Positions 2,046 through 9,125 of a stretch of DNA of 64,000 bases are shown one piece after another. Source of the DNA: Myxococcota bacterium. GTDB lineage: Bacteria; Myxococcota_A; UBA9160; PR03. The translations under genes and the position numbers were made by a program. Positions within the stretch are counted from its first letter, which is position 1, and the number at the start of each line of letters is the position of its first letter. The DNA is taken from NCBI GenBank assembly GCA_035506135.1, contig DATJPY010000103.1, forward strand, positions 3,448 to 67,447, in the 5' to 3' direction. The notes under the pieces were generated by a model, which saw only the letters and a list, made by a program, of their open reading frames with translations, had not been told where the DNA came from and searched no databases.

Positions 2046-3209
2046 ATGAAACTTGACTTCACGGCCGAGCAGCGCGCGCTCCGCAAGGAGATCCGGAGCT
2101 ACTACCGCGAGCTGCTGACGCCCGAGGTGCGCGCCGCCTTCGACGCCGAGCGCGAGGACATGGGCGGCCCGCTCTACCGCGAGCTGGTCGGCCGCATGGG
2201 GCGCGACGGCTGGCTCGGCATCGGTTGGCCGCGCGAGTGGGGCGGCCAGGGCCGCGGTCCGATCGAGCAGTTCATCTTCTGGGACGAGACCTACCGCGCG
2301 CGCGCGCCGCTGCCCGTGATCATGGTGAACACCATCGGCCCGACCCTGATGCGCTTCGGCACCGAGGCGCAGAAGCGCGAGATCCTTCCGAGGATCCTGC
2401 GCGGTGAGCTGCACTTCGCGATCGGCTACACCGAGCCCGGCGCGGGGACCGACCTCGCCTCGCTCGCCACCCGCGCGGTCGTGGAAGGGGAGCACTGGCG
2501 GATCGACGGCCAGAAGATCTTCACCACCCATGCGCACGACGCCGACTACGTCTGGCTCGCCGCGCGCACCGACCCGGGCGCGCCCAAGCACAAGGGCATC
2601 TCGATCATCCTGGTGCCGACCGACGCCCCGGGCTTCTCGGTGACGCCGATCCGCACCCTCGGCGGGGAGCGCACCAACGCCACCTACTTCGCCGACGTCC
2701 GGGTGCCGCTGGCCAACACCGTCGGCCCCGTGCACGGCGGCTGGACCCTCATCACGGCGCAGCTCAACCACGAGCGCGTGGCGCTCGCCACCCCCGGCCT
2801 CGCCGACCGGCTGCTCGACGAGGTGTGGAGCTACGCCGTCGCGACCGGGGCGATCGGCGAGGCGTGGGTCCAGATCAACCTCGCGCGCGTCTACGCCAAG
2901 CTCGACGCGCTGAAGCTCCTCAACTGGCGCTCGGCGTGGTCGCTCGAGACCGGCAACCCGCATCCGGCCGAGGCGTCGGCGGTGAAGGTGATGGGCAGCG
3001 AGTTCTTCGTCGAGTGCTACCGCCTGCTGCTCGAGATCGCGGGCGCCGCCGGCGTGGTGCTGTCCGGCGAGCCGGGCGCGCTCTTCGGTGGGCTGCTCGA
3101 GCAGGCGTATCGCGGCGCCGTCACGCTCACGTTCGGCGGCGGTGTGAACGAGGTTCAGCGCGACATCATCGCGATGGCGGGGCTCGGGCTGCCCCGGGCG
3201 AGGCGTTAG
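2046..3209 (+). CDS. Acyl-CoA dehydrogenase (FadE-type; candidate catalytic subunit)
   Basis: Internal ATG in the 156..3209 frame. N-terminus MKLDFTAEQRALRKEIR. ACAD motifs GYTEPGAGTDLASL, WRIDGQKIFTT and C-terminal FGGGVNEVQRDIIA, which carries the catalytic Glu context. Confidence 0.9.
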   Translation: MKLDFTAEQRALRKEIRSYYRELLTPEVRAAFDAEREDMGGPLYRELVGRMGRDGWLGIGWPREWGGQGRGPIEQFIFWDETYRARAPLPVIMVNTIGPTLMRFGTEAQKREILPRILRGELHFAIGYTEPGAGTDLASLATRAVVEGEHWRIDGQKIFTTHAHDADYVWLAARTDPGAPKHKGISIILVPTDAPGFSVTPIRTLGGERTNATYFADVRVPLANTVGPVHGGWTLITAQLNHERVALATPGLADRLLDEVWSYAVATGAIGEAWVQINLARVYAKLDALKLLNWRSAWSLETGNPHPAEASAVKVMGSEFFVECYRLLLEIAGAAGVVLSGEPGALFGGLLEQAYRGAVTLTFGGGVNEVQRDIIAMAGLGLPRARR

Positions 3210-4196
3210 ATGGACAAGCGCGAGCTCGAGGCGAAGCTCCGCGCCTTCGTCGGCCAGCCGACGGGTCCCCCGTTTACGGGGCCGGAGCTCGTCAACGAGG
3301 CGATGATCCACCACTGGTGCGACGCGATGGGCGATCGCAACCCCGTGTATCGGGATGCCGACGCGGCGAAGCGGTCTGCGCACGGTGGCGTCGTCGCGCC
3401 GCCCACCATGATGCAGGTCTGGATCATGCGCGGCGTCGAGATGGCGGCGCCGCAGGCCACCTCGACCGACGGCCAGATCCAGCTCGGCCGGCTCCTGGTC
3501 GAGGCGGGCTACCCGTCGGTGGTGGCGACCAACTGCGAGCAGGAGTACGAGCGCTACCTGCGCCCCGGCGACCAGATCGTCGCGACCACCGTGTTCGAGT
3601 CGATCTCGGACGAGAAGACCACGGGGCTCGGGACGGGCTATTTCATCGACACGCGCACGACCTTCCGCGACCAGCACGGCGAGCAGGTCGGGTGGATGAC
3701 GTTCCGGATCCTGCGCTTCAAGCCGAATGCTCCACCGCCGGCTGCCTCTGCCGGCACGGCCGTGCCCGCCAAGCCGCGCCGGCTTCGCCCGCCGCTCGGA
3801 CACGACAACGCGTGGTGGTGGGAGGGCATCGAGAAGGGCGAGCTGCGCATCCAGCGCTGCAAGTCCTGCGGGACGCTCCGCCATCCGCCGCGCCCGATGT
3901 GCGGCCGCTGCCAGTCGATCGAGTGGGACTGGCTCTTGTCGAAGGGCGCCGGCTCCGTCTACAGCTACGTCGTGCTGCACCACCCGCCGATCCCCGGCTA
4001 CGACTTTCCGCTGCCGGTCGCGCTGATCGAGCTCGACGAGGGCACGCGGCTGGTGGCGAACGTCATCGGCTGCAAGCCGGCCGAGGTGCACATCGGCATG
4101 CGCGTGCAGGCGCACATCGAGAGCGCGGACGACGAGCTCTCGCTTCCGTTCTTCCGGCCGGTCGAGGCCGCCCGGCCCGGTCCGGCGGAGAGGTAG
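3210..4196 (+). CDS. Fusion of MaoC-N-type hotdog domain with DUF35 Zn-ribbon/OB-fold domain (ChsH2-like)
   Basis: The ATG follows the previous stop directly. The N-terminal half is hotdog-like (NEAMIHHWCDAMGDRNPVY). The C-terminal half has CKSCG..CGRCQS plus the OB-fold region VALIELDEGTRLVANV..VHIGMRV. Confidence 0.85.
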   Translation: MDKRELEAKLRAFVGQPTGPPFTGPELVNEAMIHHWCDAMGDRNPVYRDADAAKRSAHGGVVAPPTMMQVWIMRGVEMAAPQATSTDGQIQLGRLLVEAGYPSVVATNCEQEYERYLRPGDQIVATTVFESISDEKTTGLGTGYFIDTRTTFRDQHGEQVGWMTFRILRFKPNAPPPAASAGTAVPAKPRRLRPPLGHDNAWWWEGIEKGELRIQRCKSCGTLRHPPRPMCGRCQSIEWDWLLSKGAGSVYSYVVLHHPPIPGYDFPLPVALIELDEGTRLVANVIGCKPAEVHIGMRVQAHIESADDELSLPFFRPVEAARPGPAER

Positions 4197-4198
4197 CG

Positions 4199-6971: not shown

Positions 6972-8150
6972 ATGCGCGAGGCCGTGATCGTCGAGGCGCT
7001 TCGGACGCCGATCGCACGGGGCAAGATGGGGAGGGGAGACCTCTCGGGGCTGCACGCGGGCGCGCTGCTCGCCAAGGTGCAGTTCGGGCTGCTCGAGAAG
7101 GCCGGCGTCGACCCGCAGGAGGTCGAGCAGCTCATCGGCGGCTGCGTCACGCAGGCCGGCGAGCAGTCGAACAACATCGCGCGCCACGCCTGGCTCTCGG
7201 CCGGCAAGACGTGGCACACGGGCGGGACCACGATCGACACGCAGTGCGGCTCGGGTCAGCAGGCCAACCACCTGGTGCGCGCGCTCGTGCAGGCCGGCAG
7301 CATCGACTGCGGCATCGCGTGCGGGCTCGAGATGATGAGCCACGTCGGGCTCGGGGCGAACGCGATCCACGGCCCCGGCTACTTCCAGACGCCGAACTGG
7401 CCGTGGGACCAGGCGCCGTCGCAGTTCGAGGCGGCGGAGCGCATCGCGCGCAACCGCGGCATCGGGCGCGAGGACGTCGACCGCCTCGGGCTCGCCTCGC
7501 AGGAGAAGGCCGCCAAGGCACAGGCCGAGGGCCGCTTCGCCCGCGAGATCCTGCCGATCGACGCGCCCGCGCTCGACGAGGGCGGCAAGCCGACGGGCGA
7601 GACGAAGCGCGTGGCCCAGGACCAGGGCCTGCGCCCGACGACGCTCGAGGGTCTCGCGGCGCTGAAGCCCGTGCTCCCGAACGGCATCCACACCGCGGGC
7701 AACTCGTCGCAGATCAGCGACGGCGCGGCGGGCGTGCTGTGGATGACGGCCGAGAAGGCGAAGGCGCTCGGCCTGCGGCCGCGCGCGCGGATCGTGCAGG
7801 ACGTCGTGGTCGGCGCCGATCCCCACTACCTGCTCGACGGCCCGATCGATGCCACCCGCGAGCTCTTCCGCAAGACCGGCATGAAGATGTCCGACATCGA
7901 CCTCTTCGAGGTAAACGAGGCCTTCGCCGCGGTCGTGCTCTCGTGGGCACGCGTCATGGGCGCCGACCTCGACAAGGTGAACGTGAACGGCGGCGCGATC
8001 GCGCTCGGCCACCCGGTGGGCGCGACCGGCTCGCGCCTGCTCGTGACGGCGCTGCACGAGCTCGAGCGCCGCGACGCCACGACCGCGCTCGTCACCATGT
8101 GCTGCGGCGCGGCAGTCGGCACCGGCACGATCATCGAGCGGCTCGCCTGA
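6972..8150 (+). CDS. Acetyl-CoA C-acyltransferase (thiolase II; FadA-like)
   Basis: Contains [18 protein letters not shown], the nucleophile motif [11 protein letters not shown], and [25 protein letters not shown]. Confidence 0.9.
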
Positions 8151-8213
8151 TGATCTCGCGCCGGCCGGAGGAACCGGCCGCCCAACACGGTCAAGGTGAG
8201 TAGGAGGTGCTCG

Positions 8214-9125
8214 ATGGTGCTCGACGGGAAGGTGGCGGTGGTCACGGGCGGGGCGACGGGGCTCGGGCGCTGCCACGCGCTCGAGCTGGCGCGGCAGGGA
8301 GCGCGCGTCGTGGTCAACGACCTCGGCGCGAAGGCCGACGGCAGCGGCCGCGACGAGAGCGCCGCGCGCGCGGTCTGCGACGAGATCGAGTCGCTCGGCG
8401 GCGAGGCGGTGCCGCACTTCGGCGACGCCGCGGATTGGAACACCTCGAAGGGGATGTTCGAGACCGCGGTCGAGCACTTCGGCGACGTCAACGTCGTGGT
8501 GTGCAACGCCGGCTTCATCCGCGACGCGATCCTCTTCAACATGACCGAGAAGGACTTCGACGACGTCGTGCGCGTGCACCTGAAGGGGCACTTCTGCACG
8601 ATCCGCCACGCGACGGCGTACTGGCGCGAGCGCGCGAAGGCGGGCGGCGCCGTCTACGGCCGGCTCATCGCGACGTCGTCGGAGTCGGCCTTCTTCGCCC
8701 CGCCCGGGCAGCCCAACTACTCGGCGGCCAAGGCCGGCATCATCGCGATCACGATGGGCGCGGCGCAGCTCATGCAGAAGTACGGCGTCACGGCCAACGT
8801 CATCATGCCCCGCGCGCGCACGCGCATGAACGAGGCGGGGCCGCTCGCGGCGCTCTTCAAGAAGCCGGAGGCCGGCTTCGACACCTTCGCGCCGGAGAAC
8901 GTGTCGCCGCTGGTCGGCTGGCTGGCGTCGCCGCTCGCGGCGCGCGTCTCGGGCCACGTGTTCGTGGTGTGGGCGAAGGACGTGACCGTCGTCTCGCGCC
9001 CGACGCTCGAGCAGAAGTTCCAGAGCGACGCGCGCTGGACGGTCGAGTCGCTGCAGACCGCGCTCGGACCCCACTTCGAGAAGCTCGAGCCGGTGAAGGA
9101 CGGATACACGGTTCCGGCGATGTGA
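8214..9125 (+). CDS. Short-chain dehydrogenase, MFE-2/Hsd4A-type 3-hydroxyacyl-CoA dehydrogenase
   Basis: ATG at 8214 lies 7 nt after TAGGAGG; the ORF track starts at GTG 8196. Contains GKVAVVTGGATGLGRCHALELARQGARVVVNDLG, NAGFIRD and NYSAAKAG. Confidence 0.88.
   Translation: MVLDGKVAVVTGGATGLGRCHALELARQGARVVVNDLGAKADGSGRDESAARAVCDEIESLGGEAVPHFGDAADWNTSKGMFETAVEHFGDVNVVVCNAGFIRDAILFNMTEKDFDDVVRVHLKGHFCTIRHATAYWRERAKAGGAVYGRLIATSSESAFFAPPGQPNYSAAKAGIIAITMGAAQLMQKYGVTANVIMPRARTRMNEAGPLAALFKKPEAGFDTFAPENVSPLVGWLASPLAARVSGHVFVVWAKDVTVVSRPTLEQKFQSDARWTVESLQTALGPHFEKLEPVKDGYTVPAM

Follow-up and report, generated by a model that had tools for sequence, protein, structure and literature searches.

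A probable steroid side-chain cleavage operon of the igr type, preceded by a KstR-type operator, in an uncultured lineage labelled Myxococcota

A 64-kb stretch of DNA from a Myxococcota bacterium (contig DATJPY010000103.1 of assembly GCA_035506135.1), hereafter called the window, carries near its start a seven-gene operon that resembles, in its enzymes and in its upstream regulatory sequence, the igr operon with which Mycobacterium tuberculosis degrades the cholesterol side chain. The window has a G+C content of 70-74%, and a gene call based on G+C at third codon positions places seven co-oriented genes at 2046-3209, 3210-4196, 4199-5374, 5371-5790, 5787-6959, 6972-8150 and 8214-9125, in agreement with public, independently made calls on five operon-bearing metagenome contigs, two of them incomplete. 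The start of the last gene is more likely the ATG at 8214 than the GTG at 8196. In order, the Pfam domains encoded are an acyl-CoA dehydrogenase (ACAD), FAS1_DH_region with zf-ChsH2 and OB_ChsH2_C, a second ACAD, MaoC, Thiolase_C_1 of the SCP-x type, Thiolase_N with Thiolase_C, and a short-chain dehydrogenase/reductase (SDR), so that the parts list drawn up in a first-pass annotation of this DNA describes seven real genes. The same annotation held all seven to be tightly coupled, which is true of the first five, with junctions of 0, 2, -4 (GTGA) and -4 (ATGA) nt, but not of the last two, which lie 12 and 63 nt downstream of their neighbours and each possess an AGGAGG-type ribosome-binding site of their own. 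Searched against solved structures, six of the seven products find their best match, at 118-560 bits, in their counterpart from the cholesterol side-chain pathways of M. tuberculosis or Thermomonospora curvata.

The first and third genes encode a pair of ACADs. The product of 2046-3209 (+) corresponds to the catalytic subunit typified by ChsE2 (FadE29) and Tcur3483, matching chain 4X28_A at 440 bits and chain 6WY8_B (Tcur3483) at 428 bits, and it shares 52-58% identity with the cluster of T. curvata and Actinomadura type. The product of 4199-5374 (+) corresponds to the non-catalytic partner typified by ChsE1 (FadE28) and Tcur3481, with 273 bits on 6WY8_A (Tcur3481) and 226 bits on 4X28_D; 4X28 is the ChsE1-ChsE2 complex of M. 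tuberculosis. The motif GGGVNEVQRD of the first protein had been read as the context of a catalytic glutamate, and this reading does not survive alignment. Specifically, the canonical YEG of 4U83 falls on GGG, placing the middle glycine in the glutamate column of medium-chain-type ACADs, and the only change between 6WY8 and 6WY9 in the aligned stretch is FGGG to FAGG, the first glycine being the mutated residue. Since the two structures differ there, the motif is the “key glycine” site that was engineered in Tcur3483, which has the same FGGGVNEV. The catalytic base is likely to be Glu243, within LNHERVAL, at what appears to be the helix-G position used by isovaleryl-CoA dehydrogenase (IVD) and long-chain acyl-CoA dehydrogenase; both this motif and FGGGVNEV are of the same type in ChsE2 and Tcur3483. 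In the authors' reading of the alignment, the product of 4199-5374 has glutamate at neither catalytic-base column. The pair therefore consists of one protein that matches the catalytic chain and one that matches the non-catalytic chain, with the glutamate in a single subunit, as in α2β2 ACADs of the ChsE1-ChsE2 type. Published work describes both the location of the catalytic glutamate in one subunit and the exceptional base position of IVD and long-chain acyl-CoA dehydrogenase (PMC10925408).

The second and fourth genes correspond to the two subunits of the ChsH1-ChsH2 hydratase. The protein encoded at 3210-4196 (+) joins a degenerate MaoC hotdog domain to a DUF35 module (Cys4 zinc ribbon plus OB fold; Pfam FAS1_DH_region, zf-ChsH2 and OB_ChsH2_C), and it scores 125 bits on the hydratase chains of 4W78/4WNB and, through residues 192-318, 145 bits on the DUF35 of T. 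curvata ChsH2 (6OK1_B). Its motifs include GDRNPVY, in which tyrosine replaces the catalytic histidine, and the zinc-ribbon pairs CKSC and CGRC. The small MaoC protein encoded at 5371-5790 (+) resembles the catalytic subunit ChsH1 (118 bits on 4WNB_B) and retains RDFTPVHHD, whose aspartate and histidine align to Asp29 and His34 of ChsH1; the roles of these two residues, and of those in ChsH2, were reportedly assigned in the structure paper of Yang et al. in 2014. Domains, structure matches and catalytic motifs all concur with the hotdog-DUF35 fusion and small MaoC protein listed earlier, the small subunit keeping Asp and His and the large one combining a degenerate motif with DUF35.

The fifth gene (5787-6959, +) encodes a retro-aldolase of the Ltp2 type. 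The protein scores 647 bits against NF005892, the Ltp2-type “lipid-transfer protein” model of NCBIfam (curated cut-off 469), and 560 bits, at 66% identity, against T. curvata Ltp2 (TcLtp2; 6OK1_A). In TcLtp2, Tyr294 of the YDHF motif acts as base and Tyr344 as acid, while His296 assists the oxyanion hole (PMC12329534). The two tyrosines are conserved in the operon protein as Tyr293 (YDAF) and Tyr343 (SEAYIHG). It had been described as a thiolase-fold protein without a nucleophilic cysteine, with Ile88 of GGGAAIG at the nucleophile position. The cysteine is indeed absent, but the column is a different one: phmmer pairs the nucleophilic cysteine of BbsB (QSACSAG), with no gap intervening, with Gly84, the second of the three glycines in HGGGAA, and the GG of the aldolase CtSal with Gly83-Gly84. 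CtSal has likewise been reported to have glycine at the nucleophile position (PMC12329534). The Ile88 column is occupied by Cys87 in TcLtp2, a crystallised and proven aldolase. Family score, missing cysteine and tyrosine pair are joined by a DUF35 partner with a Cys4 ribbon, for which the C-terminal part of the neighbouring ChsH2-like subunit would serve. The genetically proven Ltp2 of Comamonas testosteroni shares only 61-64% identity with its actinobacterial counterparts (PMC12502768), and the operon protein, at 60-66% identity, therefore falls inside the functional family.

The last two genes would act one round earlier in the pathway. The thiolase encoded at 6972-8150 (+) is FadA5-like: with 618 bits it clears the cut-off of 515 set for NF005889, the “steroid 3-ketoacyl-CoA thiolase” equivalog, it reaches 503 bits on 4UBV, and it keeps Cys92, His347 and Cys377/378, which bears out the earlier assignment of this gene, with its TQCGSG motif, as a true thiolase. 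The SDR at 8214-9125 (+) belongs with the dehydrogenases of multifunctional enzyme type 2 (MFE-2) and with the Hsd4A/ChsB1-Rv3548c group (258 bits on 3QLJ, an unnamed M. avium dehydrogenase and its top structure match; 242 bits on 2ET6, an MFE-2; 234 bits on 7LG9). It carries the motifs TGGATGLG and YSAAK, and its best mycobacterial counterpart among the loci compared is the SDR at the Rv3548c position, at 46-52% identity. It is probably a 3-hydroxyacyl-CoA dehydrogenase.

Upstream of the operon lies a regulatory feature absent from the first-pass annotation. A candidate sigma-70-like promoter at 1962-1990 (+), called by consensus match alone (TTGAAC, 17-nt spacer, AATAAT), sits within the 80-nt leader and is the sole such match in 1800-9400, where shuffled sequence yields 0.1. 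Directly after its -10 element, at 1990-2003, is the palindrome TGAAACACGTTTCA, 43 nt upstream of the first ATG and a perfect fit to TnnAACnnGTTnnA, which was defined as the KstR operator in work on the cholesterol regulon of mycobacteria (PMC1995591). It is the only match in 64 kb, against 0.03 expected. Its position is kept in at least ten related loci (the loci compared carry L-numbers, L001 being the window's own contig), and the box matches those of mycobacteria and rhodococci. Mostly in the form TAGAACACGTTTCA, it stands just 5′ of the first ACAD gene in L007/9, L011, L031, L090, L091, L092, L098 and L101; it also precedes a TetR gene in L013 and L095-L103, and it occurs in Rhodococcus loci and between fadA5 and igr in Mycobacterium.

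The TetR proteins encoded next to the operon in these relatives have KstR (NF033703) as their best NCBIfam match, over the full length at 103-125 bits, and the KstR structures 5CW8 and 3BJB are among their best PDB matches (~65 bits). The KstR-like genes of L095-L103, L012, L013, L016 and L018 possess an operator of their own 10-25 nt upstream. In L098-L103, the operon is divergent from such a gene, which heads a cluster of two DUF35 genes, PRK07937-type and PRK08313-type genes and a ligase gene; the TetR-headed DUF35/DUF35/PRK07937/PRK08313 cluster also occurs in L012, L013, L016, L018, L095 and L097, in some cases with an oxidoreductase of the F420/luciferase-like monooxygenase (LLM) type. 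We take this cluster to resemble Rv3520c-Rv3523 (ltp4/ltp3) of the mycobacterial KstR regulon. By tblastn, the window is without homologues of the TetR, Ltp3/Ltp4, ligase, LLM or old yellow enzyme (OYE) proteins, the only matches being paralogous ACADs and SCP-x proteins. The first-pass annotation had left the substrate as a steroid, a hopanoid or an isoprenoid; because a KstR-type operator fronts the operon here and in its relatives, we infer that a steroid is to be preferred over the other two.

Comparison with characterised systems places the operon in a known family. M. tuberculosis igr (cyp125-chsE1-chsE2-chsH2-chsH1-ltp2, Rv3545c-Rv3540c, with divergent fadA5, Rv3546; KstR regulon) has the same enzyme set, the same catalytic residues and likewise an upstream TnnAACnnGTTnnA operator. 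The window operon differs in lacking cyp125, in its order (E2-H2-E1-H1-Ltp2 rather than the E1-E2-H2-H1-Ltp2 of Mycobacterium and Rhodococcus), in having its fadA5 and SDR genes downstream and co-transcribed where mycobacterial fadA5 is divergent, in the YDAF/SEAY subtype of its Ltp2, in its diderm host, and in having no regulator gene nearby. The interleaved order had been remarked upon earlier and is real; as a novelty it is excluded, since a genome-collection scan and tblastn mapping find the same E2-H2-E1-H1-Ltp2 order to be common to Actinomadura, Spirillospora and Acidimicrobiia, and it also occurs on a Novosphingobium plasmid. In T. curvata, the numbering of the ACAD genes Tcur3483 and Tcur3481 allows for a single gene between them, which is consistent with an interleaved order there as well. 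With the ACAD and Ltp2-ChsH2(DUF35) complexes of that organism (6WY8 and 6OK1), the window shares the key-glycine motif and 66-68% identity in Ltp2.

Among Proteobacteria, the closest parallel is C. testosteroni TA441, whose ORF40-44 (ChsH2, ChsE, ChsH1, Ltp2, ChsE) have been shown by genetics to remove the C17 propionyl group (PMC12502768). Its core H2-E-H1-Ltp2 order, fused MaoC-DUF35 protein and removal of a C3 side chain are shared with the window operon, and the cross-phylum identities are similar; its genes, however, lie inside a complete steroid degradation island. CtSal-CtShy (PDB 9MYR), a proteobacterial aldolase for C5 side chains (PMC12329534), is alike in thiolase fold, DUF35 partner and retro-aldol chemistry, but CtSal is distant (156 bits) and has Tyr302/Cys304 (YDCY) and a glutamine in the Tyr344 column where the window Ltp2 has its tyrosine pair. 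BbsAB (7PXP) and the archaeal thiolase/HMGS complex (6ESQ), whose chemistry is that of true thiolases, share the SCP-x-type fold and a Zn-ribbon/OB partner, yet both keep the nucleophilic cysteine that is glycine in the two Ltp2 proteins of the window. Finally, the conjugative plasmid p3 of Novosphingobium sp. ES2-1 (L104, 6503-15407) carries ligase-ACAD-ChsH2-ACAD-ChsH1-Ltp2, with genes for a cytochrome P450, a vicinal oxygen chelate (VOC) dioxygenase, TetR and electron transfer flavoproteins as neighbours and no KstR box in the locus. The presence of a copy on a conjugative plasmid indicates that the module is mobile.

With its gene content, orthology-level similarity, catalytic residues, operator and synteny, the operon is judged likely to encode the final cycle of side-chain breakdown in the aerobic degradation of sterols or bile acids, together with the two closing steps of the preceding cycle, under KstR-type control. 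The earlier igr-like reading is supported by the structure matches of six of the seven products, the NCBIfam cut-offs passed, the catalytic residues, and the KstR-type operator here and in relatives. If the substrates are those of the characterised orthologues, the MFE-2-type SDR would oxidise a 22-hydroxy-24-oyl-CoA steroid, and the FadA5-like thiolase would then release acetyl-CoA to leave a C22 thioester of the 3-oxo-pregnene-20-carboxyl-CoA type. The heteromeric ACAD, with the 2046-3209 product as catalytic subunit and the 4199-5374 product as its partner, would introduce the C17=C20 double bond, and the ChsH1/ChsH2 MaoC hydratase would add water to give a tertiary 17-hydroxyl that cannot be oxidised. 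Ltp2, presumably held by the DUF35 tail of ChsH2, would resolve this by retro-aldol cleavage, with Tyr293 as base and Tyr343 as acid, yielding propionyl-CoA and a 17-keto steroid of the androstenedione type. Repression would be exerted by a KstR-like TetR protein encoded elsewhere in the genome.

The window holds a second aldolase unit on the opposite strand, some distance downstream. Its genes run from a small single-cluster ferredoxin (14599-14799, -; Pfam Fer4_13/Fer4_15) through a stand-alone DUF35 protein with a Cys4 zinc ribbon and OB fold (14186-14587, -; zf-ChsH2 and OB_ChsH2_C; CTAC and CLAC) to a second Ltp2, here called Ltp2b (13008-14189, -). Ltp2b had been put forward as a Cys-bearing thiolase paralog against which the operon protein could be read, and this is incorrect: it has GGG with glycine at the nucleophile column, together with YDHF and GEAYIHG, and it scores 677 bits against NF005892 and is 68% identical to TcLtp2, all of which make it a second aldolase. 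The Ltp2b and DUF35 genes overlap by 4 nt, and the pair is kept in L028 and L035; a split DUF35 beside Ltp2 is also seen on a Rhodococcus rhodochrous plasmid. In a neighbour-joining distance tree (drawn without support values), Ltp2b and its L028/L035 orthologues nest with Acidimicrobiia and other Actinobacteria, which suggests that Ltp2b was acquired horizontally. There is no KstR box 5′ of the unit, even with two mismatches allowed, and no adjacent hydratase gene; this unlinked module would probably apply the same chemistry to another steroid intermediate. Homologues of the ferredoxin follow the Ltp2 gene in L012, L016 and L018 and the operon SDR in L013, hinting at a P450 partner elsewhere.

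The two Ltp2 proteins represent two subtypes that are recognisable across ~210 homologues. In one, YDAF is accompanied by SEAY and, where readable, by Ile, Val, Thr or Leu in the residue-88 column; in the other, YDHF is accompanied by GEAY and by a Cys in that column, save for a single sequence with Gly. The operon copy has Ile, Ala and Ser at residues 88, 295 and 340 (6048-6050, 6669-6671 and 6804-6806, +), three positions whose co-variation is almost perfect; the residues of TcLtp2 in these columns are Cys87, His296 and Gly341, and Ltp2b matches TcLtp2 at all three. Read in this way, the Ile88 column is a subtype marker and not the nucleophile. To the YDAF/SEAY subtype belong the operon copy and the H1-adjacent copies of Myxococcota-type metagenome-assembled genomes (MAGs), Halioglobus/Halieaceae, a Steroidobacteraceae MAG and a Pseudomonadales MAG. 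The YDHF/GEAY subtype comprises all actinobacterial copies, including TcLtp2, along with Ltp2b of the window and the copy on the Novosphingobium plasmid, and the last of these rules out a subtype strictly confined to Actinobacteria. The split (His296/Gly341/Cys87 versus Ala/Ser/Ile-Val-Thr) offers enzymologists a concrete pair of variants.

Metagenome contigs from soil and peat encode proteins identical to the operon Ltp2, and relatives at 80-96% identity are numerous, the named ones being MAGs of a “Myxococcota bacterium” or “Deltaproteobacteria bacterium”. The neighbouring glutaminyl-tRNA synthetase has the same affiliation and shares contigs with the operon in relatives, which argues for vertical inheritance within the lineage. 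Among Myxococcota-type relatives, the seven-gene block is kept while the flanks differ. BBP2 outer-membrane porins encoded in the window fit a diderm host.

Several observations weigh against a KstR-controlled steroid pathway. No kshA, kstD, hsa, ipd, cyp125, mce4-type or acyl-CoA ligase gene was found in the window, in the 6 kb of upstream flank or in the ~8.7 kb past the downstream end (10 kb from 62669), whether selected genes were scanned with Pfam and NCBIfam or all open reading frames (ORFs) of five reference steroid loci were used as tblastn queries. The window contains no TetR regulator gene detectable by tblastn, and the TetR proteins of relatives, at the scores given above, fall below the KstR equivalog cut-off of 280. 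The SDR lies just below both curated cut-offs (PRK07791, 343 against 373; PRK07792, 339 against 414) and, among the MFE-2-type SDRs, is a candidate orthologue of Rv3502c. In the operon Ltp2, the column of TcLtp2 His296 is Ala295, and it is Ltp2b, not the operon copy, that has YDHF. Replacement of His296 in TcLtp2 caused a loss of only 14-fold (PMC12329534), and for this reason Ala295 is not disqualifying; some 150 homologues carry YDAF, in every case with SEAY. Finally, nothing relevant was found in the literature on steroid catabolism in Myxococcota, Myxococcales or Deltaproteobacteria, and the window lineage has no cultured member and none shown to use steroids.

The absence of ring-degradation genes extends beyond the window. 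Genes for KshA, KstD, Hsa, Ipd, Cyp125, Mce and acyl-CoA ligase were likewise sought and not found in the flanks of 16 related loci. When all ORFs from steroid loci of Mycobacterium, Rhodococcus, Actinomadura and Halioglobus served as tblastn queries, neither the window nor the 16 loci gave a homologue of KstD, HsaEFG, Cyp125 or Hsd4B, and the set expected of a full 9,10-seco pathway (kshAB, kstD, hsaABCD, ipdAB and cyp125/mce4-type genes) is not found within ~85 kb. It is possible, if unlikely, that these bacteria only trim the side chains of sterols or bile acids for their acetyl-CoA and propionyl-CoA, releasing C19 17-ketosteroids with their rings intact. The lack of KstD, HsaEFG and Cyp125 homologues would fit such a habit, as would the position of the operon as an isolated module amid housekeeping genes and a window-encoded acyl-CoA carboxylase that could accept propionyl-CoA. 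However, the share of the genome that is visible is small in every member of the lineage, steroid genes outside Actinobacteria are frequently scattered, and one KstR-like locus, of uncertain affiliation, does have a Rieske/KshA_C gene.

Alternatively, the same dehydrogenation, hydration and retro-aldol steps might act on a non-steroid, ring-attached 2-methyl-acyl-CoA derived from a hopanoid, another cyclic triterpenoid or an isoprenoid. The host lineage is not known as a steroid degrader, no ring-degradation, sterol-uptake or P450 genes were found within ~85 kb, and the operon Ltp2 belongs to the divergent YDAF/SEAY subtype, no member of which is linked to experiment in the literature examined. 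This alternative is nonetheless improbable, in that the thiolase passes the FadA5 equivalog cut-off, the ACAD keeps the glycine motif of Tcur3483, which is specific for C3 steroid side chains, relatives, too, pair the operon with a KstR-type operator and KstR-like regulators, and identity to proven steroid enzymes is at the level of actinobacterial-proteobacterial orthologues (PMC12502768). An ordinary branched-chain or fatty-acid β-oxidation operon, with a normal thiolase as its thiolase-fold protein, is scarcely credible: all seven families are generic at the Pfam level, but the thiolase nucleophile Cys and both oxyanion His residues are replaced in the operon Ltp2 (Gly84, Tyr293 and Tyr343), a separate true thiolase is encoded next in the operon, and the ACAD and MaoC pairs have a heteromeric, steroid-type architecture.

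Additional genes at this and related loci deserve mention. In L096, a Rieske plus KshA_C gene (10766-11737) lies directly downstream of a KstR-like TetR gene, at the locus of uncertain affiliation; its product weakly matches the sterol 4β-methyl monooxygenase SdmA and gives no match to the KshA model, and it was rejected as KshA. On L090, a 523-kb contig of marine or sediment origin, the genes on either side of the operon (1232-4921 and 13369-21170) encode a KstD-related FAD-binding protein of the PRK07121 type, an OYE/BaiCD-like flavoenzyme and three sulfatases; the FAD-binding protein passes a related “FAD-binding protein” model, falls far below the KstD equivalogs, and was rejected as KstD. 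An 853-residue sulfatase is encoded ~6 kb upstream of the operon on L001. Within the window, 40037-45947 holds genes for an IclR regulator and malic enzyme and, after them, for the carboxyltransferase, biotin carboxylase and biotin-carrier components of an acyl-CoA carboxylase, and it is speculative that this enzyme takes the propionyl-CoA from Ltp2. A segment of lower G+C (66-68%) at 23930-29473 carries two paralogous genes for porins of the BBP2 type, and the next two genes are glnB- and glnA-like by their N-terminal sequence. A gene of the WS/DGAT wax-ester synthase/acyltransferase family occupies 29687-31081. Finally, DUF4410 lipoprotein-like genes, ~36% identical to one another, are found at 10524-11207 (-) in the window and at 362-1111 in the L001 flank, and one of them sits between carbonic anhydrase and glnS.

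The bacteria usually credited with aerobic steroid catabolism are Actinobacteria and certain Alpha-, Beta- and Gammaproteobacteria. The operon very probably extends this known pathway to a new bacterial group, and the chemistry itself is not new. A broader picture, still doubtful, is of a soil lineage with an actinobacterial-style KstR regulon scattered as boxed modules and two types of Ltp2, one of proteobacterial type held on ChsH2 and the other of actinobacterial type, apparently acquired horizontally, with a free DUF35 and a ferredoxin; such bacteria might only shorten side chains, including those of sterols made by Myxococcota, and release C19 17-ketosteroids into soil. The interest of the locus resides in its host lineage, in the dispersed KstR-style regulon, and in the two Ltp2 subtypes found side by side. 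If the interpretation of the operon as a steroid side-chain pathway is correct, the range of organisms that turn over sterols and bile acids would widen to include an abundant, uncultured lineage of soils and sediments labelled Myxococcota, and the finding raises the question of whether steroid transformation limited to the side chain takes place in soils.

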